Source of the DNA: Moorellales bacterium
Lineage (GTDB): Bacteria > Bacillota > DSM-521 > Neomoorellales > SLTJ01
Direction: 5' to 3'
NCBI GenBank assembly: GCA_049719955.1
Contig: JBNARC010000005.1
Span: 3,976-67,975, forward strand
Length of the DNA stretch: 64,000 bases
Position numbers and translations under genes: made by a program. The notes under the pieces are model-generated. The model searched no databases, was not told where the DNA came from, and saw nothing but the letters and a program-made list of their open reading frames with translations. This document shows, piece after piece, positions 1,231 through 53,136 of the stretch (position 1 is its first letter; each line of letters starts with the position of its first letter).

Positions 1231-1424
1231 CCCATAAGACTTTGCCGATGGCGCAGGCAACTAAGTCCGGAGGCCACGGACGGCCGAAGCCGCGGGGCGC
1301 CACGGATGGCGCCTCCGCCGGGAACCCGCCGGAGGGCGAGGCCCGAACCGTAGTTCGGTCGGCGAGGTAACAGTACGAACGGGGAGCACCCGTAGCGCCT
1401 AAGGTAAACTGGGCATAACTCAGG
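1231..1424 (+). repeat. Degenerate, internally deleted copy (A) of the ~270-nt hairpin repeat family
   Basis: 1269-1400 aligns with 15583-15713 and 43134-43265 (GGAGGCCACGGACGGCC...GGTCGGCGAGGT.ACAGT.CGAACGG.GA). It keeps the central hairpins and the 3' arm but lacks the 5' terminal repeat. It starts 4 nt after the upstream stop codon. Confidence 0.7.
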
Positions 1425-1465: not shown

Positions 1466-1525
1466 AGTCTATACAAGCGCGATAACAGCTTGATACCGCA
1501 GAGCCGGATACTTTTTGTTTGCAGT

Positions 1526-1544
1526 ATCAATGAGAATGAAAATC
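1526..1544 (+). promoter_or_regulatory. Candidate Fur-family operator (Fur-box-like AT-rich site) in the feoB leader
   Basis: ATCAATGAGAATGAAAATC matches GATAATGATAATCATTATC at 12 of 19 positions by hand alignment. It is an isolated AT-rich island between the promoter and the RBS of an iron-uptake operon. Confidence 0.3.
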
Positions 1545-1562
1545 AATCGCAGGAGGCCAAAA

Positions 1563-2108
1563 ATGCCGGCTGACGTTCATTCGAAGAGCCCCCTTCCCCG
1601 TCTGGTGTTGATGGGCACCCCTAACGTGGGCAAGAGCGCTTTATTTCACGCCTTAACAGGGGCATACGTAACCGTCTCTAACTACCCCGGAACCACGGTG
1701 GAAATAGCCAGAGGTCGGGCGGTTATCGGCGGAACGGTATGGGAGGTCATCGATACGCCGGGTCTTTATTCTCTTTTCCCCGTCACCGAGGAGGAAAGGG
1801 TGGCCAGGTCTGTCCTTTTCACCGCTCCCGATCTGGTGTTGCACGTGGTGGACGGCAAGAGCCTGGAGCGTTCGCTGGCCTTGACCCTTCAGCTCCTAGA
1901 GACCGGGCTTCCCGTGATCCTGGTAGTCAACCTGCTGGACGAAGCGGAGCGGGCGGGGGTGCGCCTCGACCTGCCCGGTCTAAAGGAGCGTCTGGGTATA
2001 CCGGTGGTGGGTACGGTGGCGGCTACCGGGCGCGGCCTGGAGGAGTTGAAGGCGGCCGTAGTTAGTCTCTACCGCTCCCGCCGGGAAAGGGGGAGAAAGG
2101 TCGGATGA
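1563..2108 (+). CDS. feoB: Ferrous iron transport protein B, stand-alone N-terminal GTPase (G-domain) polypeptide
   Basis: G1 GTPNVGKS, G2 YPGTTVE and G3 DTPG motifs are present. The start was moved to ATG 1563 because AGGAGG (1551-1556) precedes it; the ORF track opens at 1515. Its stop overlaps the next ORF start (ATGA at 2105-2108). Confidence 0.85.
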   Translation: MPADVHSKSPLPRLVLMGTPNVGKSALFHALTGAYVTVSNYPGTTVEIARGRAVIGGTVWEVIDTPGLYSLFPVTEEERVARSVLFTAPDLVLHVVDGKSLERSLALTLQLLETGLPVILVVNLLDEAERAGVRLDLPGLKERLGIPVVGTVAATGRGLEELKAAVVSLYRSRRERGRKVG

Positions 2109-3562
2109 CCACCTCAAGTGTGCCGGTGCGGCCAACCCTTCCGCCCGAGCTGGAAGGGGCAGTAGAGCAAGTAAGCAGTTTGTTGAAGGGGTCGTACCCT
2201 CTGGCTCCACGGGCTATGGCCTTGTTGCTGCTTGCGGGTGACGGCGAGGCGGGCTCGCTGGTGAGGCAACGCGAGGGGTCGGCGGCGGAGGAGATAAAGC
2301 GGGTGGTAGAGCAGATACGGTCCCAATTCGGGGAACCACTGAACTACCTAATTATGCGCGGCTATTACCAGGTAGCGGCCGAGCTGGCGCAGGGGACGGT
2401 AGTCAGGCCCCACTCGCCGCTCAGAAGCTGGGGAACTAGATTGGGCGAATGGACCATGCGACCGTGGCCGGGGATCCCCATCCTGCTGTTGGTGCTTTAC
2501 TTCGGCTTCTACCAGGCGGTAGGGAGATTCGGAGCCGGGTGGCTGGTTGGGTACCTGGAGGAAGATCTGTTTGAAGGGTTGATTAATCCTCTGGTTAATG
2601 CCTGGGTAGCGGCGCTACCTTGGTCATGGTTGCGGGAACTTATTGGCCTGGACTACGGCGTAATTACCTTAGGGTTACGCTACGCGGTGGCGATCATCCT
2701 GCCCATAGTGGGTGTGTTTTTCCTGGTCTTTTCCCTCCTGGAGGACAGCGGTTACCTGCCGCGTTTGGCCCTGCTGGCCGACCGGGCGTTGAAACTCGTG
2801 GGACTGAACGGTCGCGCTATTATTCCCCTTATCCTGGGATTGGGATGCGGCACCATGGCTACGGTGGTAACCCGCACCCTCGAAAGCAAACGGGAGAAAC
2901 TCATCGCCACTTTTCTCTTAGCCTTGGCCGTACCCTGTTCCGCCCAATTAGGTGTGATCATGGCCGTGCTGTCCCCGTATCCCCGGGCGCTCGTGCTCTG
3001 GGGGGCAGTGGTAATGCTGGTAATGCTGGTAATGGGGCATTTGAGCGCCCGTCTGGTGCCCGGCGACCACAGCGGCTTTTACCTGGAGATCCCCCCCATA
3101 CGTGGGCCACGTCCGGGAAACGTGCTTACTAAGACCTTCGCCCGCATGCGCTGGTATTTCATAGAAATACTGCCCCTGTTCCTGCTGGTGAGCGTACTTA
3201 TATGGGCTGGAAGACTGTCCGGGGTTTTTGACTTGGCGCTTCGGGCCTTAACCCCCTTTACCGCAGCGCTGGGGCTCCCTCCCGAAGCCGCCGCCGTTTT
3301 CCTGTACGGCTTTTTCCGAAGGGACTACGGGGTGGCCGGGCTGTACGATTTGGCCTCGGGTGGGATTCTCAGTCCCAGGCAGTTGTTGGTAGCCGCTGTG
3401 ACCCTTACCCTGTTTGTTCCCTGCGTAGCCCAGGCCACGGTAATGTTCAGAGAACGAGGGCCGCGGGCGGCGCTGGCCATCCTGGCCCTGGTGCTGGCTC
3501 TGGCCTTCGGCCTGGGTTACCTGCTGAACCGGCTGTTGGCGATTTGGGGGCCGGCCTTGTGA
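2105..3562 (+). CDS. feoB: Ferrous iron transport protein B, membrane (gate/nucleoside-recognition) domain polypeptide
   Basis: 485-aa polytopic membrane ORF with a FeoB-like helical linker region followed by TM segments (ILGLGCGTMATVVTR, LFVPCVAQATVM). It is translationally coupled to the G-domain ORF. Confidence 0.8.
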   Translation: MTTSSVPVRPTLPPELEGAVEQVSSLLKGSYPLAPRAMALLLLAGDGEAGSLVRQREGSAAEEIKRVVEQIRSQFGEPLNYLIMRGYYQVAAELAQGTVVRPHSPLRSWGTRLGEWTMRPWPGIPILLLVLYFGFYQAVGRFGAGWLVGYLEEDLFEGLINPLVNAWVAALPWSWLRELIGLDYGVITLGLRYAVAIILPIVGVFFLVFSLLEDSGYLPRLALLADRALKLVGLNGRAIIPLILGLGCGTMATVVTRTLESKREKLIATFLLALAVPCSAQLGVIMAVLSPYPRALVLWGAVVMLVMLVMGHLSARLVPGDHSGFYLEIPPIRGPRPGNVLTKTFARMRWYFIEILPLFLLVSVLIWAGRLSGVFDLALRALTPFTAALGLPPEAAAVFLYGFFRRDYGVAGLYDLASGGILSPRQLLVAAVTLTLFVPCVAQATVMFRERGPRAALAILALVLALAFGLGYLLNRLLAIWGPAL

Positions 3563-7064: not shown

Positions 7065-7907
7065 ATGCTAAAGCTGGAGAATTTGTCGGTCAAGGTGGGG
7101 GACCGCGAGATCCTTCACGATATTAATCTGGAAATCCGGCCGGGTGAGGTCCACGTACTGTTCGGTCCCAATGGGTCGGGCAAGACCAGTCTATTGGGAA
7201 CCATCATGGGTTTTGAGCGCTACCGGGTGGTACGGGGCCGGATTTACTTTCAAGGCCAGGACGTTACCGATTGGCCGGTAGATGCCCGGGCGCGACTGGG
7301 AATCGGCCTGTCCTTTCAGCGGCCGCCTACTGTGAGAGGGGTTACTACCCGGCAACTGGTAGAAGTGTGCGGTCAGGGGCGGGCCAAAGTGGAAGCTTTG
7401 GCCGCCGAGGTCAACTTTCAGGACTTCCTGGACCGAGAAGTGAACCTCGGTTTCTCCGGAGGAGAGCTGAAACGATCGGAGTTGTTGCAGTTGTTGGCGC
7501 AGGATCCTCAGTTGGTGTTGCTGGACGAGCCGGAGTCGGGCGTGGATCTAGAGAATATGGCCTTGATCGGGCGGGTTGTGAACCGCTTGCTTGAGAGGGA
7601 CGTAAGCCACCGCGAAGGCAAATCGCAGAGAGAAATTCGACGTGGTCGCCGTAAGTCCGGACTGATTATTACTCACACCGGGCACATTTTGAACTACGTA
7701 AACGGCGACGTGGGGCACGTGCTGTTTGAAGGGCGCCTCTCCTGCGTGGGCAACCCCCGGGAGCTGCTGTCCTGTATTCAGGAGCTGGGTTACGAAGAGT
7801 GCATCCGCTGTTCGGTCGGAAACGCTACCTCAGCAGGAGGGCAACAAAACCATGAGCACGAGTCGGCGACAGGAAATACTGGCCCGAGCGCGGGCGGCAG
7901 TAGATAA
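7065..7907 (+). CDS. SufC-like ABC ATPase of a two-gene minimal SUF-type Fe-S assembly module
   Basis: Walker A GPNGSGKTSL, signature FSGGELKR, Walker B LVLLDEPESGVD and H-loop ITHTGH. A Cys-containing tail is present (CIQELGYEECIRC). The 3' end overlaps the next gene. Confidence 0.75.
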   Translation: MLKLENLSVKVGDREILHDINLEIRPGEVHVLFGPNGSGKTSLLGTIMGFERYRVVRGRIYFQGQDVTDWPVDARARLGIGLSFQRPPTVRGVTTRQLVEVCGQGRAKVEALAAEVNFQDFLDREVNLGFSGGELKRSELLQLLAQDPQLVLLDEPESGVDLENMALIGRVVNRLLERDVSHREGKSQREIRRGRRKSGLIITHTGHILNYVNGDVGHVLFEGRLSCVGNPRELLSCIQELGYEECIRCSVGNATSAGGQQNHEHESATGNTGPSAGGSR

Positions 7908-9084
7908 GGCGGCGGCCTACGGCGAGGACCTGGACCTCAGCCGCTTTCGGGTTCCGGTTCCGGAGGAGAAGACAGCGCTCGACCCGGCGGAGCTGCCGGC
8001 AAAAGACCGCGAGCGTCTCCTGGCGGCAGGAATTGACCTGGGGGGAGAGGATCGCTCCGGGACCTTCCTGCAGGTAAACCATTCGGTGCGGTGTTGCGGC
8101 GTGGCTCAAGAAGGGCTGGAGGTGCTCAGCACTTTCGAGGCCCTCGACAAATATCCCTGGGTGGAAGATTATTGGTGGCGTTTAGTGGCGCCGGACCAGG
8201 ACAAGTATACGGCTCAGGTAGCGATGGCCGAGCACCGAAACGGCTATTTCATCCGGGCTTTACCCGGCTCCAGTACTGTCTATCCGCTGCAGGCCTGTCT
8301 CTACCTCCAGGAAGATGGGACCGTCCAAAACGTGCACAACATCGTAATTGTGGAAGAAGGCGCCGAGCTACACCTGATTAGCGGCTGTGCCAGCGCCGCC
8401 CAGGTGAAGCGGGGCCTCCACATCGGGGTTTCCGAGTTTTACGTGAAGAAGGGCGGCCGGCTCACCTTCACCATGATTCACTACTGGGGTGAAGAGGTGG
8501 CGGTTCGTCCGCGCTCGGCGGCGGTGGTGGCCGAGGGCGGGCTTTTCGTTTCTAATTACATCTGCCTGCGACCGGTGCGCAGCCTTCAGATGTACCCCAC
8601 GGCTTGGCTGCAGGGACCGGAGGCGGTGGCCCGCTACTACAGTATTCTGGTGGCTCCCCCCGGAACCTTCATGGACGTTGGGTCGCAGGTAGTACTTCAG
8701 GCTCCCCAAACGCGGGCGGAAGTGGTGGCTCGCACCTTGACCGTAGGGGGCGAAATTATTAACCGGGGTCGTTTGGTTGCCGAAGCTCCGGAAGTGAAGG
8801 CGCACCTGGAGTGCCGGGGTTTGGTGCTGGGCGAGAGAGGCGTCATACACGCCATTCCCGAGCTGCTAACCAAGGTGGGCAACGTGGACCTATCCCACGA
8901 GGCGGCGGTGGGGAAAATCGCCCAAGAGGAAATAGAATATCTTATGGCTCGCGGGCTCAGCGAAGAAGAGGCCACTGCTACCATTGTGCGCGGTTTCCTT
9001 AACGTGCAGATTACCGGCCTGCCGGACGCCTTGCAGGCCGAGATCGACCGGGCGGTAGCCATGGGAGAAAAGGCCTTGTTCTGA
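7852..9084 (+). CDS. SufB/SufD-family Fe-S cluster assembly scaffold protein
   Basis: About 410 aa with the SufBD beta-helix region (IVIVEEGAELHLISGC...FYVKKGGRLTFTMIHYWG...) and C-terminal HEAAVGKIAQEEIEYLMARGLSEEEATATIVRGF. ATG 7852 is preceded by AGGAGG (7835-7840); the ORF track opens at 7726. Confidence 0.75.
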   Translation: MSTSRRQEILARARAAVDKAAAYGEDLDLSRFRVPVPEEKTALDPAELPAKDRERLLAAGIDLGGEDRSGTFLQVNHSVRCCGVAQEGLEVLSTFEALDKYPWVEDYWWRLVAPDQDKYTAQVAMAEHRNGYFIRALPGSSTVYPLQACLYLQEDGTVQNVHNIVIVEEGAELHLISGCASAAQVKRGLHIGVSEFYVKKGGRLTFTMIHYWGEEVAVRPRSAAVVAEGGLFVSNYICLRPVRSLQMYPTAWLQGPEAVARYYSILVAPPGTFMDVGSQVVLQAPQTRAEVVARTLTVGGEIINRGRLVAEAPEVKAHLECRGLVLGERGVIHAIPELLTKVGNVDLSHEAAVGKIAQEEIEYLMARGLSEEEATATIVRGFLNVQITGLPDALQAEIDRAVAMGEKALF

Positions 9085-12620: not shown

Positions 12621-12755
12621 CGGTTAGGCTTTGGTCCCCAACGAAGCCTACTGGAGGCGGTATTGCCGGGGGTAGAGGAAGGAATTCGGGGTTGAGAGAA
12701 GAACTATGGGTAGCAAGCCCGCTATCCAACCATCGCGAAGAGGAGGCAGAAGAAC

Positions 12756-13688
12756 ATGTCGCCGGGCAGTGCCACCTTGGTAATCGAAGACCGTCAAGAT
12801 AGACTTTACCTGATCGATCTTCCCCACCTTATGGCCGGCTTTAATCCCTTTCTGGCTGCCTGGCTCTTGTTGACCCCGGAGGCTAATTACTTAGTGGATC
12901 CGGGGCCGCCGGTGCATGCCCCTCACCTGCTCCGCGCCTTGGAAGACCTGGGTCTGGAGCGATTGGATTACATACTGCTAACCCATATTCACCTCGACCA
13001 CGCCGGGGCCACTGCCCGGGTGCTGGAACGGTTTCCCCAAGCTCGAGTGTTCGCCCACTCGCTGGGGCGGCCTCATCTGACTTCGCCTCGAGCCTTGTGG
13101 GAGGCCAGCCAGGACGTCATGGGTCAACTGGCCACCTACTACGGCCCTCCGCCTCCCGTGCCGGCTTCAAGCCTGGCGGAAACGGTCCCGGGGATTGAAG
13201 TAATCGAAACCCCGGGTCATGCCCCGCACCACCTGTGTTTCCGCCGCGGCCGGGTTCTATTCGTAGGGGAGGCCGCCGGAGTTTACCAGGCGCTAAACGG
13301 CTTTTACCTCCGCCCGGCTACCCCGCGACGCTTTTTCTTTGAAATCGCCATCGGCTCCTTGGACAAGCTTTTAGCGTTAGAGCTAGAAGGGGTTATGCTT
13401 TGCCACGGACATTACGGGCCTAACCCCCGGGCCCGAAAAACGCTTTCCCTTCATCGCGACCAGCTCTACCTATGGCGGGAGGTAGCCGCCGACTACCTTC
13501 CCCGCGTAGGGGACGAGAAGACTTGGTACGAAACTACGCGGGCAGAACTGCTGAAGCGCGATCCTCTACTGCAAAACTATTTCAAGCTGCCGCCAGACGT
13601 GCAGCGGCGGGAGCAGTATTTTCTGGATAACAGCCTGGAAGGCTACCGGGAGTATCTGCTTTCGGACAAACGCGCAAGCGTTCAATAG
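12756..13688 (+). CDS. MBL-fold metallo-hydrolase
   Basis: LLTHIHLDHAG (HxHxDH motif) with later GHAPHH and CHGH. Confidence 0.75.
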   Translation: MSPGSATLVIEDRQDRLYLIDLPHLMAGFNPFLAAWLLLTPEANYLVDPGPPVHAPHLLRALEDLGLERLDYILLTHIHLDHAGATARVLERFPQARVFAHSLGRPHLTSPRALWEASQDVMGQLATYYGPPPPVPASSLAETVPGIEVIETPGHAPHHLCFRRGRVLFVGEAAGVYQALNGFYLRPATPRRFFFEIAIGSLDKLLALELEGVMLCHGHYGPNPRARKTLSLHRDQLYLWREVAADYLPRVGDEKTWYETTRAELLKRDPLLQNYFKLPPDVQRREQYFLDNSLEGYREYLLSDKRASVQ

Positions 13689-14799: not shown

Positions 14800-15453
14800 T
14801 TGGAGAAGAAGGGTTACCCGGAGCTAGAGGAGGTCATACGCCGGGTACGGGGGGTAGCGTCGGTTCGCGTATTCCGGGATGAGGAAGGGAACGTCAGCGA
14901 AATTCACGTGGTAGCGGACCCCAGGCGCAACCCAAAGCAACTGGTGCGGGACATAGAGAGCGCGGTAGCGGTAGCCATGGGTATCCAGCTTGACCACAAG
15001 AAGATAAGCGTGGTGCAGTTTGAATCCGGCTCTCGGGTAGAAGAGGCCCGGCCCGAGTATCCGCCGTCCGGGCCCGTCGAGCCCTTGCCCGTCCTGACCG
15101 GGCTAAGCTATCACCTTCAGGGCCAGCAGGTGCGGGTGGAGGTGCAACTGGAGCTGGGAGGCGAGGTTTACTCGGGTTCCGCCAGTAGTGAATCGCAGTT
15201 GCTCAGTCCCGGTGCGCTTGCCGCCGAGGCGGTACTCAAGGCCCTGGAGACGCGGTGGGGCCCCCGGGCGGCCGTCAGGTTGGGGGATGCGGTGAAGCTT
15301 CGGGTAGCCTATAGGGATGCCTGGGTGGTGGTGGTGGAAACCGTCGAGGGGCCCCAGATCGGCGCCGCCCTAGTGATGCGGGAGGATCTGGAGGCGGCGG
15401 CCGAGGCCACCTTGGCCGCGCTGGCGCCAAGGCCCCGGCGGCGTCCGGCCTAA
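14800..15453 (+). CDS. Hypothetical protein (two-domain, no recognised family)
   Basis: 217-aa ORF with an SD (GGGGGGAG) and coding-like composition. N-terminal part: VRGVASVRVFRDEEGNVSEIHVVADPRRNPKQLVRDIESAV. It sits between hpf and secA. Confidence 0.5.
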   Translation: MEKKGYPELEEVIRRVRGVASVRVFRDEEGNVSEIHVVADPRRNPKQLVRDIESAVAVAMGIQLDHKKISVVQFESGSRVEEARPEYPPSGPVEPLPVLTGLSYHLQGQQVRVEVQLELGGEVYSGSASSESQLLSPGALAAEAVLKALETRWGPRAAVRLGDAVKLRVAYRDAWVVVVETVEGPQIGAALVMREDLEAAAEATLAALAPRPRRRPA

Positions 15454-15464
15454 CAGGCGGCATA

Positions 15465-15737
15465 CTGAGTTATCCCCATTCGAGTGAACTTGAGTTGACT
15501 GGCGGTACCGGGTGCTCGCCTGAGTACATTGGCAACTCGCCGGGCACCGAACTTGGCGAGGACGAGCGCGCCAGGCGCTCGCGAGGCCACGGACGGCCGG
15601 AGCCGAGGAGCGCCATGGACGGCGCTTCCGAGGGGAGCCCGCCGTAGCGCGAAGGCTGAGCCCTAGTTTGGTCGGCGAGGTGACAGTACGAACGGGGAGC
15701 ACCCGGTACCGCCCGTGGGAAAGTGGGAATACGTCAG
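15465..15737 (+). repeat. Full-length copy (B) of the ~270-nt hairpin-forming dispersed intergenic repeat
   Basis: Perfect 17-bp terminal inverted repeat GGCGGTACCGGGTGCTC (15501-15517) / GAGCACCCGGTACCGCC (15697-15713). An outer imperfect stem CTGAGTTATCCCCA / TGGGAATACGTCAG is present. Central hairpins are GGCC-ACGGAC-GGCC and GGAGCGCC-ATGGAC-GGCGCTTCC. It is homologous to 43025-43285, 1231-1424 and 29173-29248. Confidence 0.85.
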
Positions 15738-15747
15738 GGCCATAAGG

Positions 15748-15777
15748 TTGCAACTTCTCGTCTGCGAGTGCTAGAAT
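15748..15777 (+). promoter_or_regulatory. Sigma-A promoter with extended -10 for secA
   Basis: TTGCAA (15748-15753), 18-nt spacer, TGcTAGAAT (15769-15777). Confidence 0.5.
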
Positions 15778-15849
15778 AGGAGGCAGAGTGGAAAAGAGGA
15801 ACCGCCACGGTTCCTCTTGGCGCCTTATACGGGAAGGCGGTGGGTTTAG

Positions 15850-18504
<2,655 letters not shown>

Positions 18505-18561: not shown

Positions 18562-19693
18562 GTGCTTGCCGACTATAGACCCCGCCTGGAAATGCTGAAA
18601 TCCCGGCTGGAAGAATTGAGGGTTTCCCTTTGACCTGGCCGGCAAGGAGGAAACTATAAAGGAATTGGAGGCGCGCCTGGCCCTTCCTGAGGTCTGGCAG
18701 GACGCCCGCCAGGCGGCGGAGCTGGGCCGGCGGCTGGCGGAGCTCAAGGAGGAGCGGGAGAAGTTCCTCTCCTTGGCGCGCCAGGTAGAGGATCTATGGG
18801 TTCTATGGGAGCTGGCGCTGGAAGAGGGTGAGGAAGGCCTGGCGGAAGAGGTGGCCCGGGGCCTGGCGGCGGCGGAGAAAAGCCTGGACCGGGCGGAAAT
18901 CGAGGTGCTCCTGAACCAGCCCTACGACCACCACTCCGCCTACCTTTCCCTGCACGCCGGCGCCGGGGGCACCGAGGCTCAGGACTGGGCGGCCATGCTG
19001 CTGCGCATGTATACCCGTTGGGCGGAGGAGAAGGGCTACCAGGTAGAAGTGGTAGATTGTCTGGAAGGCGAGGAGGCGGGGATTAAGAGTGCCACCCTGC
19101 GCATCGCCGGGCCCTACGCCTACGGTTACCTTAAGGCGGAAAACGGAGTGCACCGCCTGGTGCGCATTTCTCCCTTTGATGCCGCCCGCCGGCGGCACAC
19201 CTCCTTTGCTTCGGTGGAGGTGCTGCCGGAGCTGGAGCCGGAAGAGGAGATAACCATCGACCCCGAGGACCTGCGCATCGATACCTTCCGGGCCAGCGGC
19301 CACGGCGGCCAGCACGTAAACAAGACCGAGTCGGCGGTGCGCATCACCCACCTGCCCACGGGGATAGTGGTGCAGTGCCAGAACGAGCGCTCCCAGCACG
19401 CCAACCGCCTGACCGCCATGAAGATTCTGCAGGCCAAGCTGTTTGAGCTGAAAAGACGGCAGGAAGAGGAGCGCTTGAGCGCCCTGAAAGGGGAGCAGCG
19501 GGAAATCGCCTGGGGAAGTCAGATCCGGTCCTACGTCTTTCAGCCCTACCAGATGGTGAAGGATCACCGCACCGGAGTGGAAGTGGGCAACGTGGAGGCG
19601 GTCATGGACGGGGAAATCGACCCCTTTATCTTCGCCTACCTGCGGCACCGCGTGCAGAAGGGGGAGAAGGCCCCGACCCGCGCCGCGCCTTAG
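18562..19693 (+). CDS. prfB: Peptide chain release factor 2, expressed through a programmed +1 frameshift (join 18562..18630, 18632..19693)
   Basis: Frame 0 reads GTG-LADYRPRLEMLKSRLEELRVSL and stops at CTT TGA C (18628-18634). The +1 frame continues DLAGKEETIKELEARLALPEVW... with the SPF and GGQ motifs (RASGHGGQHVNKTESAVRITH). Confidence 0.9.
18625..18634 (+). other. Programmed +1 ribosomal frameshift site of prfB
   Basis: CCC TTT GAC context containing the classical CTT-TGA-C shift site, with an upstream SD-like GAGGG. Confidence 0.85.
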
Positions 19694-29147: not shown

Positions 29148-30344
29148 TTGGCGGGCCCAAGCAGGATTCGAGCTGAGTTACCCCCACTTTTAGGTTGGCG
29201 GGCGGTACCGGGTGCTCTCCTGAGTACATTGGCACCTCGCCGGGCACCTGATAGGCCAGGCATTCGAGGGCTGGCAGCGTTGCTGACGGCCGTATTGCTA
29301 CTGGCCTGCGTGGTCGGGTGCGGTCGACCGGTTCCGCCTTCGCAGTTGGGAGCCCAGCCGGGGACGACCGGTCGGGTAAAGTTGAGCGGAGGGGGAGCTA
29401 CCTTTCCCTATCCCCTCTACTCCAAGTGGATCGAGGAATACAAAAAGCTTAAGCCCGGCGTGCTGGTGGATTACCAGTCCATAGGTAGCGGCGGCGGTAT
29501 CCGGGGCATAACCGAGGGCACCCTGGATTTCGCCGGTAGCGACGCGCCCATGACGCCGGAGGAGCGGGCCAAGGCACCGGCCGAGATCGTGCACCTGCCG
29601 GTAGTGCTGGGAGCGGTGGCGGTTACCTACAACCTTCCCGGCAACCCGGTGCTTAATTTGGACGGCGAGACCCTGGCCGAGATCTACCTGGGCCGCATTA
29701 CCAAGTGGAACCATCCCCGCCTGCAGGCTCTCAACCCGGGATTGACCCTTCCCGAGCGGGATATCGCCGTGATACACCGCTCGGACGGCAGCGGCACTAC
29801 CTTCGTGTTTACCGACTATCTCAGCCGCACCAGCCCGGCCTGGAGGGAGGGACCGGGTACCGGGAAGTCCGTTTCCTGGCCTTTCGGCATTGGCGGCAAG
29901 GGTAACGAGGGGGTTACCGGCCAGCTCAAGCTGATAGAGGGCGCCATCGGCTACGTGGAGCTGGCCTACGCGGTGAAGAACGGCCTGCCTTGCGCCCGGA
30001 TGAAGAACCGGGCGGGCCGATTTGTGGCGCCTACCCCGGCGGCGGTGGCCGCGGCGGCAGCCGGTGCCGCCCAGGATATGCCGGAGGACCTATGCCTGTC
30101 CCTGGTAAACGCGCCGGGACCCGACGCCTACCCGATTTCCACCTTTTCTTACCTGCTGGTTTACCAGGATCAGCCCGATCCGGTTAAGGGCAAGGCCCTG
30201 GCGGAGTTCTTGTGGTGGGCGGTGCACGAGGGGCAGCAGTACGCGGAGGAGTTGCTTTACGCGCCGTTGCCGGAACCGGTGGTAAAACGTCTGGAGGAGA
30301 AGCTGAAAACCCTTACCAGTCAGGGCCGCCCGCTGTTGCCGTAG
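29148..30344 (+). CDS. pstS: Phosphate-binding lipoprotein PstS
   Basis: GGGATFPYPLYSKW, SIGSGGGIRGI, FAGSDAPM and HRSDGSGTTFVFT are the canonical phosphate-ligand motifs. The lipobox is LLLACVVGC. TTG 29148 has a GGGAGG SD; the alternative start TTG 29229 lies inside repeat copy D. Confidence 0.85.
   Translation: MAGPSRIRAELPPLLGWRAVPGALLSTLAPRRAPDRPGIRGLAALLTAVLLLACVVGCGRPVPPSQLGAQPGTTGRVKLSGGGATFPYPLYSKWIEEYKKLKPGVLVDYQSIGSGGGIRGITEGTLDFAGSDAPMTPEERAKAPAEIVHLPVVLGAVAVTYNLPGNPVLNLDGETLAEIYLGRITKWNHPRLQALNPGLTLPERDIAVIHRSDGSGTTFVFTDYLSRTSPAWREGPGTGKSVSWPFGIGGKGNEGVTGQLKLIEGAIGYVELAYAVKNGLPCARMKNRAGRFVAPTPAAVAAAAAGAAQDMPEDLCLSLVNAPGPDAYPISTFSYLLVYQDQPDPVKGKALAEFLWWAVHEGQQYAEELLYAPLPEPVVKRLEEKLKTLTSQGRPLLP
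29173..29248 (+). repeat. 5' fragment (copy D) of the hairpin repeat family, inside the 5' end of the pstS ORF
   Basis: CTGAGTTACCCCCACTTTTAGGTTGGCGGGCGGTACCGGGTGCTCTCCTGAGTACATTGGCACCTCGCCGGGCACC aligns with the 5' arms of copies B and C. Homology stops at 29248. Confidence 0.75.
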
Positions 30345-42962: not shown

Positions 42963-43024
42963 CCATTGGATGCCTCGGGGCGCGCCATCACTGCTTCCAG
43001 GCGGGCAGTCATCAGCCGGGCGGT

Positions 43025-43285
43025 CTAACGAATCCCCGCTTTTGGGTTGGCGGGAGGTACCGGGTGCTCGCCTGAGCACATTGGCAACTCGCCGGGAACC
43101 GAACTTGGCGAGGCCGAGTGCGAAGGCGGGTCGGAGGCCACGGACGGCCGAAGCCGAGGAGCGCCATGGACGGCGCTTCCGAGGGGAGCCCGCCGTAGCG
43201 CGAAGGCGGAGCCTTAGTTCGGTCGGCGAGGTGACAGTGCGAACGGCGAATACCCGGTACCTCCCAAGAAAACCGGGGCACATCC
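43025..43285 (+). repeat. Full-length copy (C) of the ~270-nt hairpin-forming dispersed intergenic repeat
   Basis: Terminal inverted repeat GGGAGGTACCGGGTGCTCGCC (43052-43072) / GGCGAATACCCGGTACCTCCC (43245-43265). Outer stem CCCCGCTTTT / AAAACCGGGG. The core is near-identical to copy B across 43073-43244. Confidence 0.85.
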
Positions 43286-43298
43286 GCCGGGCGGCCTC

Positions 43299-43327
43299 TT
43301 GGAGCCCCAGCCGGGTTATGGTATGCT
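43299..43327 (+). promoter_or_regulatory. Sigma-A-type promoter for pth
   Basis: TTGGAG (43299-43304), 17-nt spacer, TGgTATGCT (43319-43327). Confidence 0.4.
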
Positions 43328-51785: not shown

Positions 51786-52055
51786 ATGGAGAACCGGCAC
51801 CAGCTCAGCCTGAGTGATCGGCGGGAGCTCACGGTCAGCGGGGTAACCCATGTGGATCACTATCACGGCCGAGAGGTGGTAGTGGCCACCAGTCTGGGGT
51901 TTCTGGTGGTTACCGGAGAGGAACTGAGTATTGAGCATCTCAATCTGGAAGACGGCATTCTCAAGCTAAAGGGGCTGATTAGCGGCCTCACCTACAGCGA
52001 ACAAGAGAGGGGTGCGGGCCGGGGCCAGAGCCGGTGGCGCCGGCTGTGGCGGTAA
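51786..52055 (+). CDS. yabP: Sporulation protein YabP
   Basis: HQLSLSDRRELTVSGVTHVDHYHGREVVVATSLGFLVVTGEELSIEHLNLEDGILKLKG. Confidence 0.9.
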   Translation: MENRHQLSLSDRRELTVSGVTHVDHYHGREVVVATSLGFLVVTGEELSIEHLNLEDGILKLKGLISGLTYSEQERGAGRGQSRWRRLWR

Positions 52056-52675: not shown

Positions 52676-53136
52676 GCATGCGGAACCGGTCGGCACCGGG
52701 CGCTTCCTCGCGGACATGGGCACCTCGCCGAGTACCGAGCCTCAGCGCGGTTGGCGGGCTGACACGAACGGGGAAGGTCTGGTCCCGTCGAGAGCAAAGC
52801 GGGATTATGTTGGGCGGCGCCTCACCTTCGAAGGGCAAAGAGGGGCGGGGGGCGCGGCGCCCGCCTTTCCGGGGGCGCGCCTTGCTCCTGCTGCTGATCC
52901 TGGGATACTGCTTGGTGCTCAGTCTGCGCAGCGAGTGGCAAATCTATCGGCTAAAGCGGGAGTTGGCCCAGGTGGAAGCTACGCGCCAGGAGTTGCTGCT
53001 TAAGCGGCAGGCCCTAGAAAGGGAAAAACAGCGCCTCAACGACCCGGTTTACCTGGAGGGAGTGGTACGGGAGGAATTGGGTTTGGTCCGGCCGGGCGAG
53101 GTGTTGGTGGTGCCGGGGGATCGACTGGCGCCCTAA
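52672..53136 (+). CDS. divIC: Septum formation initiator DivIC/FtsB family
   Basis: TM segment LLLLLILGYCLVL, then the coiled coil YRLKRELAQVEATRQELLLKRQALEREKQRLNDPVYLEGVVREELGLVRPGE. GTG 52672 lies 5 nt after GGAGGAG. ATG 52807 is an alternative start. Confidence 0.8.
   Translation: MSMRNRSAPGASSRTWAPRRVPSLSAVGGLTRTGKVWSRREQSGIMLGGASPSKGKEGRGARRPPFRGRALLLLLILGYCLVLSLRSEWQIYRLKRELAQVEATRQELLLKRQALEREKQRLNDPVYLEGVVREELGLVRPGEVLVVPGDRLAP

Follow-up and report, generated by a model that had tools for sequence, protein, structure and literature searches.

A probable miniature transposon with IS10-like ends upstream of secA in an uncultured Moorellales-like lineage

Introduction

The window, that is, the whole 64,000-nucleotide stretch of DNA analyzed here, contains a 273-nt block (copy B) between a 217-aa open reading frame (ORF), whose stop codon TAA lies at 15451-15453, and the promoter of secA. 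The question is what this block is. A preliminary description regarded it as a noncoding, hairpin-forming block with homologous copies elsewhere in the window, and proposed three identities: a MITE- or REP-like mobile repeat, a 3′-UTR stabilizer or insulator, and a multi-copy structured noncoding RNA.

The first of these is favored here. With a probability of about 0.8, the block belongs to a family of non-autonomous DNA transposons (MITEs), about 260-275 bp long and with IS10-like ends, that are mobilized in trans. This reading is based on the terminal inverted repeats, the 9-bp duplications, the orthologous sites that are filled in one genome and empty in another, and the lineage-restricted distribution of the copies. 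The preliminary description had added that termini matching a known IS family would make the block an ordinary MITE, and the termini do resemble those of IS10. The block is a genuine element of a familiar type, namely a lineage-specific MITE, and it lies outside every described RNA family. The kind of element is itself ordinary; the noteworthy parts are its promoter-proximal placement, its conserved tip and its association with an IS110-family insertion sequence.

Position and anatomy of the block

The features of copy B and its flanks are as follows; a slash marks the junction of an insertion site.

15456..15464, no strand: left-flank 9-mer GGCGGCATA, read from the sequence as a decayed target-site duplication
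15465..15737, + strand: copy B of the candidate MITE, full length, the feature studied; nhmmer E = 3.5e-80, rod-like fold of -151.5 kcal/mol
15465..15478, + strand: 5′ terminal inverted repeat CTGAGTTATCCCCA (outer stem); family consensus CTGAGTTATCCCCACTTTC
15501..15517, + strand: 5′ arm GGCGGTACCGGGTGCTC of the subterminal 17-bp stem, perfect pairing with 15697-15713
15519..15534, + strand: IS110-family insertion site CCTG/AGTACATTGG, uninterrupted in copy B; the IS is inserted there in related copies
15585..15598, + strand: apical hairpin 1, GGCC-ACGGAC-GGCC, loop ACGGAC; stem invariant in 11 copies
15607..15629, + strand: apical hairpin 2, GGAGCGCC-ATGGAC-GGCGCTTCC, loop ATGGAC; three stem pairs with compensatory changes, loop differing at Y positions only
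15697..15713, + strand: 3′ arm GAGCACCCGGTACCGCC of the subterminal 17-bp stem, perfect pairing with 15501-15517
15724..15737, + strand: 3′ terminal inverted repeat TGGGAATACGTCAG (outer stem); consensus TGGGGATAACTCAG
15738..15747, no strand: right flank GGCCATAAGG, a putative duplicated-target remnant plus AGG, abutting the -35 box
15748..15777, + strand: secA promoter of the sigma-A type, TTGCAA-18-TAGAAT with TG, outside the element; the -35 hexamer starts at 15748, and the relatives L007 and L009 have the same promoter at their empty sites

The hairpin block is real, and every stem and loop listed in the preliminary description is present, including the CTCGCCG/CGGCGAG pairing. The 17-bp repeat, which had been taken as terminal, is however subterminal: it sits 36 nt inward of the true 5′ terminus and 24 nt inward of the true 3′ terminus of the transposon, both of which are formed by the outer stem. 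The statement that the block holds no ORF also needs correction, as a 166-aa minus-strand ORF (15370-15870) spans copy B and overlaps both neighboring genes. Its translation has no database relative, and a search of the translated open minus-strand frame of the element for gene calls on the other copies gave zero matches. The ORFs of the element, which is 260-275 bp long, are spurious only, and it has no coding capacity.

An Rfam search of the window at gathering thresholds returned only three tRNAs and no family on the element. The preliminary description had recognized neither a named RNA family nor an IS end in the block; its ends resemble those of IS10. Other RNA identities were considered and rejected. 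The raiA-motif RNA, which often occurs near hpf/secA, was dismissed because there is no Rfam match and the element is multi-copy; 6S-like RNA, omega or bridge RNA and retron ncRNA were dismissed on account of the duplications and terminal repeats and the lack of an adjacent gene.

Copies and insertion polymorphism

Fourteen copies of the element were found: five in the window, two in L007 (the metagenome-assembled genome GCA_024653205.1) and seven on short metagenome contigs (L011, L014, L015, L016, L018, L019 and L026). A pattern scan of the metagenomes gave six of the contig copies, and L026 was reached through an IS110 look-up. The in-window copies gave blastn E values of 1e-18 to 1e-83 and nhmmer E values down to 1e-80. 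Besides copy B, the window contains the following.

1231..1423, + strand: copy A of the candidate MITE, 5′-truncated, 3′ terminus intact; -35 box TTGACA at 1437, 13 nt downstream
29173..29248, + strand: copy D, a 5′ fragment (terminal repeat and 5′ arm)
43025..43286, + strand: copy C, full length, 3′ terminus decayed; flanks CCGGGCGGT (43016-43024) and CCGGGCGGC (43287-43295), TTGGAG 12 nt downstream
about 52689..52810, + strand: copy E, old and diverged, central domain deleted, 3′ terminus recognizable; found as two collinear halves (E = 0.004 and 0.0019)

The four copies listed in the preliminary description were all recovered, with the end of copy C moved to 43286; the fifth, at about 52689-52810, had been missed. 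Copy A, which had been called internally deleted, lacks the 5′ arm and is 5′-truncated instead.

The SecA of the window is nearest to those of Moorellaceae/Thermanaeromonas, at about 75% identity, which places the window in an uncultured Clostridia lineage. Closer relatives are L007, whose SecA is 94% identical, together with its JGI twin L008, and the metagenome contig L009, with 85% identity. The comparison of orthologous spacers reads as follows.

Spacer from the 217-aa ORF to secA: filled in the window (396 nt); empty in L007 (156 nt, same promoter); empty in L009
Spacer from secA to prfB: empty in the window; filled in L007, antisense (copy L007b, 12696-12913); empty in L009
Spacer upstream of csp: empty in the window, same promoter; filled in L007 (copy L007a, 7823-8134)

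Comparison of the window with L007 therefore gives three orthologous sites at which only one of the two genomes carries the element. The relatives L009, L021 and L022 (85, 77 and 76% SecA identity; about 55 kb in total) have zero copies. In a pattern scan of the genome contig collection, six chance matches appeared, none of them similar to the element; viral contigs scanned with the core and terminus patterns gave no match, and BLAST searches of plasmids and phages with the element gave nothing meaningful. Exact-protein look-ups with the window SecA and with an 89-aa ORF (window 51786-52055) returned no record. The element family is restricted to one uncultured Moorellales-like Clostridia lineage, in which it has spread recently.

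These positions also bear on the idea that the element is a 3′-UTR mRNA stabilizer, a terminator or a transcriptional insulator, selected between adjacent genes. All five window copies are in sense orientation downstream of a + strand gene, the hairpin is very stable, and REP and ERIC repeats are known to behave in this way. However, the genes of the window are almost all on the + strand, so that the orientation rule is confounded, and the two copies in L007 break it: L007a lies in a divergent promoter region upstream of csp, with no co-directional gene upstream, and L007b is antisense between secA and prfB. The earlier statement that the copies share the orientation of the flanking genes consequently holds in the window and fails in L007. 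Moreover, the absence of a T tract, already pointed out in the preliminary description, agrees with intrinsic terminator prediction on copies A, B and C, which gave zero terminator-like sites and no U tract, and the element-free orthologous sites keep the same promoters and genes, which indicates that the element is dispensable. As a general rule, a stabilizer or insulator function is quite unlikely.

Some further observations concern the surroundings of the copies. The 217-aa ORF (window 14800-15453), between hpf and secA, has no Pfam domain; its position is kept in the relatives (215 aa in L007, 172 aa in L009 and 227 aa in L022), and it is absent in L021. The 5′ leader of secA carries a hairpin, GAGGAACC-loop-GGTTCCTC, at window 15797-15820, with equivalents in L007, L009, L021 and L022; across these relatives, of 76-94% SecA identity, the stem is kept and the loop varies, and it may be a leader regulatory element. 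The sequence CCCTTTGAC, in the 5′ region of prfB (window 18626-18634), is the well-known +1 programmed frameshift site of RF2 (CUU UGA C) and is conserved in L009.

Copy D runs into the beginning of a gene for a PBP-like lipoprotein (window 29229-29300), where an in-frame TTG within the fragment (29229) is followed by a lipoprotein-type signal peptide (LLLACVVGC); this gene may owe its start codon or its 5′ UTR to the remnant. In L011, a core copy lies within a longer hairpin (40-480) that has other outer arms, GTGCCGGTTCTGTGCCTCGT and ACGAGGGCAGAACCGGCAC, and a fold of -268 kcal/mol (z -10.8), with a second, partial homology at 63-143; this copy may have inserted into a different palindromic repeat, which would give a nested arrangement.

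Termini, target-site duplications and likeness to IS10

From the aligned copies and their flanks, the termini of the element read CTGAGTTATCCCCAC(TTTC) ... (GAAAG)TGGGGATAACTCAG, with terminal inverted repeats of about 19 bp. The terminal repeats are intact in seven copies; CTGAGTTATCCCCAC(TTTC) stands at both ends of L015, L007a and L019 and is slightly decayed in copy B. The preliminary description had suggested looking for target-site duplications, and they are present, with a length of 9 bp. The flanking 9-mers are these.

L015: CGGAGCCTG left, CGGAGCCTG right; perfect duplication
L007a: GGCCCGGTA left, GGCCCGGTA right; perfect duplication
Copy C: CCGGGCGGT left, CCGGGCGGC right; 8/9 identical
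Copy B: GGCGGCATA left, GGCCATA... right; decayed
L019: ends intact, flanking 9-mers without match

The right flank of copy B may be read as GGC(GG)CATA after a loss of 2 nt.

The IS10 subgroup of the IS4 family is characterized by termini that begin with CT and by 9-bp direct repeats (PMC2266710). On plasmid R100, the IS10 ends were read as CTGATGAATCCCC and CTGAGAGATCCCC, where they bracket the gene for an "IS4-like element ISVsa5 family transposase", with CTGATGAATCCCCTAATGA as the outside end and CTGAGAGATCCCCTCATAA as the inside one. The terminus of the element is identical to the inside end at 11/13 positions and to the outside end at 10/13, and the 5′ end of copy C, CTAACGAATCCCC, matches the outside end at 11/13. 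By our own estimate, a likeness of this degree could arise by chance at about the 1e-2 level, after allowing for all the IS families compared. An autonomous partner, which the preliminary description had also proposed to look for, was found neither by tblastn with the IS10 transposase in the window and 27 fetched loci nor, by the element termini, on the viral contigs. Since no autonomous IS with these termini was found, the probable assignment to the IS10 subgroup of the IS4 family is based on 10-11/13 terminal bases and on the duplication length.

Distance to -35 boxes

The preliminary description emphasized the position of the copies between a stop codon and a promoter. What is constant in their context is a nearby -35 box rather than a nearby stop codon. 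When the gap is measured from the intact end of an element to the next -35-like hexamer, the following values are obtained.

L015, 3′ end: gap 12 nt; TTGACA-17-TAACAT
L007a, 3′ end: gap 12 nt; TTGACT-17-TAAAGT
Copy C, 3′ end: gap 12 nt; TTGGAG, weak promoter
L019, 3′ end: gap 12 nt; TTGACG, without -10
L019, 5′ end: gap 12 nt; TTGATG-18-TATAAT, divergent gene
Copy A, 3′ end: gap 13 nt; TTGACA-17-TAAGAT
Copy B, 3′ end: gap 10 nt; TTGCAA-18-TAGAAT

Six copies therefore end 10-13 nt upstream of a -35 hexamer, mostly 12 nt, which equals the 9-bp duplication plus 3 (flank coordinates: window 15738-15753, 1424-1442 and 43287-43304; L015 689-706; L007 8135-8152; L019 both sides). The gap of copy B would also be 12 nt if its duplicated 9-mer lost 2 nt. 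The flanks of L016 and L018 have no -35-like hexamer at such a distance. Given the base composition, the probability of TTG at a given position is about 0.011, and by our own estimate six copies with TTG at 10-13 nt are far beyond chance. In most mapped insertions, the duplicated 9-mer ends 3 bp before a sigma-A -35 box, and either end of the element can be promoter-proximal, as L019 demonstrates for the 5′ end.

The -35 boxes lie outside the duplication, and the csp and secA promoters are found at the sites that lack the element as well; therefore, the promoters are target DNA and not cargo, and the possibility that the -35 box forms part of the element was rejected for the same reasons. Lack of room does not explain the spacing at the L007a site, where several hundred bases of free spacer are available. 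The spacing may result from target choice or from selection.

If target choice is responsible, the transposase, or a complex of it with RNA polymerase/sigma-A or with a DNA-binding domain like sigma region 4, would cut roughly at -39 to -47, which is the position of the proximal UP element, with a 9-bp stagger whose end lies 3 bp before the -35 box, and would do so in both orientations of the element.

Fold, pairing and the AYGGAY loops

The + strand RNA of copy B is predicted to fold into a single long rod with a minimum free energy of -151.5 kcal/mol (z = -8.4; 0/200 shuffles were as stable), whereas the - strand RNA reaches -135.7 kcal/mol (z = -6.5), a difference of 16 kcal/mol in favor of the + strand. 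A composite structure of 93 pairs was tested on an alignment of 11 copies, in which 96% of the cells are paired. Both sides have changed in 11/93 pairs, compared with 4.4 +/- 1.4 in shuffles (0/500 reach 11) and 1-3 in slid controls. Pairing is kept least in the terminal-repeat helix (80%) and most in the interior helices (94-100%); helix 3, which is the 17-bp subterminal stem, has three pairs with compensatory changes. G-U pairs exceed A-C mismatches (41 to 12 cells, and 10 to 3 interior pairs), which favors the + strand as the paired one, and the apical loops are invariant in the 11 copies apart from Y/Y changes. Furthermore, four copies (C, L007b, L011 and L014) have termini that match the consensus at only 38-58% and cores that are 85-92% identical, a pattern that would not be expected from the simple neutral decay of a MITE.

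The 11 compensatory pairs, the invariant loops and the cores that outlast the termini together suggest that the interior is under constraint beyond transposition. Several of the compensatory events may predate insertion and have occurred in master copies, and in long quasi-palindromes template-switch correction from arm to arm is known to mimic compensation without selection.

In a permissive scan, TwoAYGGAY was the only Rfam model that touched the element, with 20.5 bits against a gathering cutoff of 43 and E of about 0.9 even in a 321-nt search; the match uses model positions 45-113 of 168 and covers the enclosing stem and both hairpins. In a larger search with this model, the match fell beyond the E-value limit. 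The element resembles TwoAYGGAY but is not a member of that family, for which a role as a CsrA-binding sRNA in Clostridia has been proposed (PMC4333381).

Both loops of the element read C-A-Y-G-G-A-C-G. The pattern of CsrA/RsmE sites is CANGGANG, and both loops fit it.

On this basis, the element could mainly be a functional multi-copy structured RNA, a relative of TwoAYGGAY in which the two CANGGANG-type loops would be bound by a dimer of CsrA; in that case, the transposon ends would serve merely to carry it, and the old copies would have been kept by the host for this function. The span of the TwoAYGGAY match, the invariant loops with the compensated stem of hairpin 2, the excess of G-U pairs, the better + strand fold and the cores that persist in the four old copies all agree with it. 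Against it, the Rfam score is far below the cutoff, L007b is conserved and yet antisense in the secA-prfB spacer, where the mRNA would carry GUCCGU loops and not AYGGAY, and the young copy L007a lies upstream of a promoter without a co-directional upstream gene. In addition, tblastn with a B. subtilis CsrA query gave no match in about 150 kb of the clade, and the template switching mentioned above can yield compensatory changes without selection. We therefore regard it as unlikely that RNA function is the main role of the element. Of the third identity proposed in the preliminary description, the compensatory pairing and the invariant loops are compatible with a structured RNA, and no significant Rfam match accompanies them.

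A joint reading, which we put forward only tentatively, combines promoter-directed integration by the MITE with a conserved two-hairpin CANGGANG module that would make each transcribed copy a CsrA-type site, so that such sites would be seeded across operons.

An IS110-family insertion sequence that uses the element as target

In L014, the element is interrupted at CCTG/AG...GGGC/AGTACATTGG by an IS of 1.58 kb (1516-3090, - strand), which encodes a 406-aa protein with DEDD_Tnp_IS110 and Transposase_20 domains. The same IS (93% identical) occupies the same site of another copy in L026 (445-2017), and a 69-nt insertion at this site of L007a (L007 7852-7920) consists of the left and right ends of this IS. 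The element is thus a specific insertion site of an IS110-family IS, with CTCTCCTG/AG/TACATTGG as the candidate target and the same junction in three copies.

IS relatives with 85% nucleotide identity sit in unrelated targets. When the left ends of the IS are aligned (L014 3090-2842, L023-L025 and L026), two short variable stretches appear between conserved flanks in noncoding DNA. The variant GGGCCTGAGAC (L014, L026) matches the element junction CCTG/AG, and the variant AAAAAAAGAC (L023/L024) matches the target ATAAA/AG. In IS110 biology, the target loop of the bridge RNA matches the target site, and by analogy the variable left-end stretch looks like such a target-binding loop.

The IS110 ORF was also considered as the transposase of the MITE itself and was rejected, because the protein, an enzyme of the DEDD type, makes no duplications on insertion and its relatives lie in other targets. 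Another reading is that the element is a REP/BIME or an IS200/IS605-type (PATE) palindrome moved by a tyrosine (HUH) transposase, or that it is part of an IS110 element. Its palindromic structure and intergenic location, as well as the physical association of an IS110-family IS with three copies, would agree with this. However, HUH and IS110 transposition produce no 9-bp duplications and need no terminal inverted repeats, and the element has both; it is about 270 bp long rather than 20-40 bp; in L007a, the element into which the IS110 sequence is inserted is complete, with ends and a duplication of its own; and close IS110 relatives are found in unrelated targets. This origin is highly improbable.

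Proposed mechanism and implications

In the favored reading, the transposase, a DDE enzyme of the IS10 subgroup within the IS4 family, would act in trans by binding the terminal repeats, and would cut the target with a 9-bp stagger, which would leave the 9-bp direct repeats. The two halves of the element are complementary, so that its DNA or RNA would form a long rod tipped by the two AYGGAY-loop hairpins; transcription from an upstream gene would yield the more stable + strand hairpin. Once transcribed, this hairpin may work like REP or ERIC, as a barrier or a site of processing at the 3′ end, and perhaps also as a CsrA-type module to which proteins bind.

For genome annotation, the label of an unassigned structured RNA can be removed, and the blocks should be masked as a MITE family in searches for riboswitches or sRNAs in this clade. 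The family is also a strain-level marker, as its sites differ between genomes with 94% SecA identity, and it points to an active IS10-like transposase in the uncultured Moorellales-like lineage. The copies interrupted by the IS110-family IS offer an example from nature of how target-specific that IS is. Should the 12-bp spacing to the -35 box prove general across the genome, it would provide an uncommon example of a bacterial DDE transposon whose choice of target is directed by promoters. If the joint reading of promoter targeting and CsrA-type loops is true, a bacterial transposon would target promoter-upstream DNA, much as Ty3 is directed to Pol III start sites, and would seed a post-transcriptional regulatory motif across operons.

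Comparison with known systems

The closest likeness is to the IS10 subgroup. The termini of the element begin with CT, have CTGA(G)..ATCCCC in common with the two ends of IS10, and agree with them at 10-11 of the first 13 bases, and like IS10-derived MITEs the element is short and noncoding, with terminal inverted repeats. The 9-bp target duplications are a further shared trait (PMC2266710). On the other hand, the host belongs to a thermophile-like Clostridia lineage and not to the Enterobacteria, no cognate transposase was found in the window and the fetched loci, and the whole interior of the element is a foldback hairpin. The symmetric IS10 hotspot is NGCTNAGCN; the 9-mers of the element do not fit it, and the insertions occur at a fixed distance from -35 boxes.

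Hairpin MITEs such as ERIC/IRU, Correia (NEMIS), RUP, BOX and SMAG are intergenic and multi-copy, form long RNA hairpins if co-transcribed, show compensatory changes, and differ in their insertions between close strains. The element is like them in all these traits, but has no sequence relationship with them, and its duplication length and termini differ. To our knowledge, a fixed 12-nt promoter-proximal placement is not a described property of such MITEs.

TwoAYGGAY (RF01731) shares with the element an adjacent pair of AYGGAY-loop hairpins in an enclosing stem, the association with Clostridia, and loops that fit the CsrA pattern (PMC4333381). In contrast to it, the element is multi-copy, with transposon ends and target duplications, and scores 20.5 bits against 43. 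Finally, REP/BIME sequences that serve as targets of IS110-family members (e.g., IS621) offer a parallel for the interrupted copies, since in both cases a dispersed palindromic repeat is the sequence-specific landing site; here, the repeat is a 270-bp MITE, probably made by a DDE transposase, and not a 35-bp REP.
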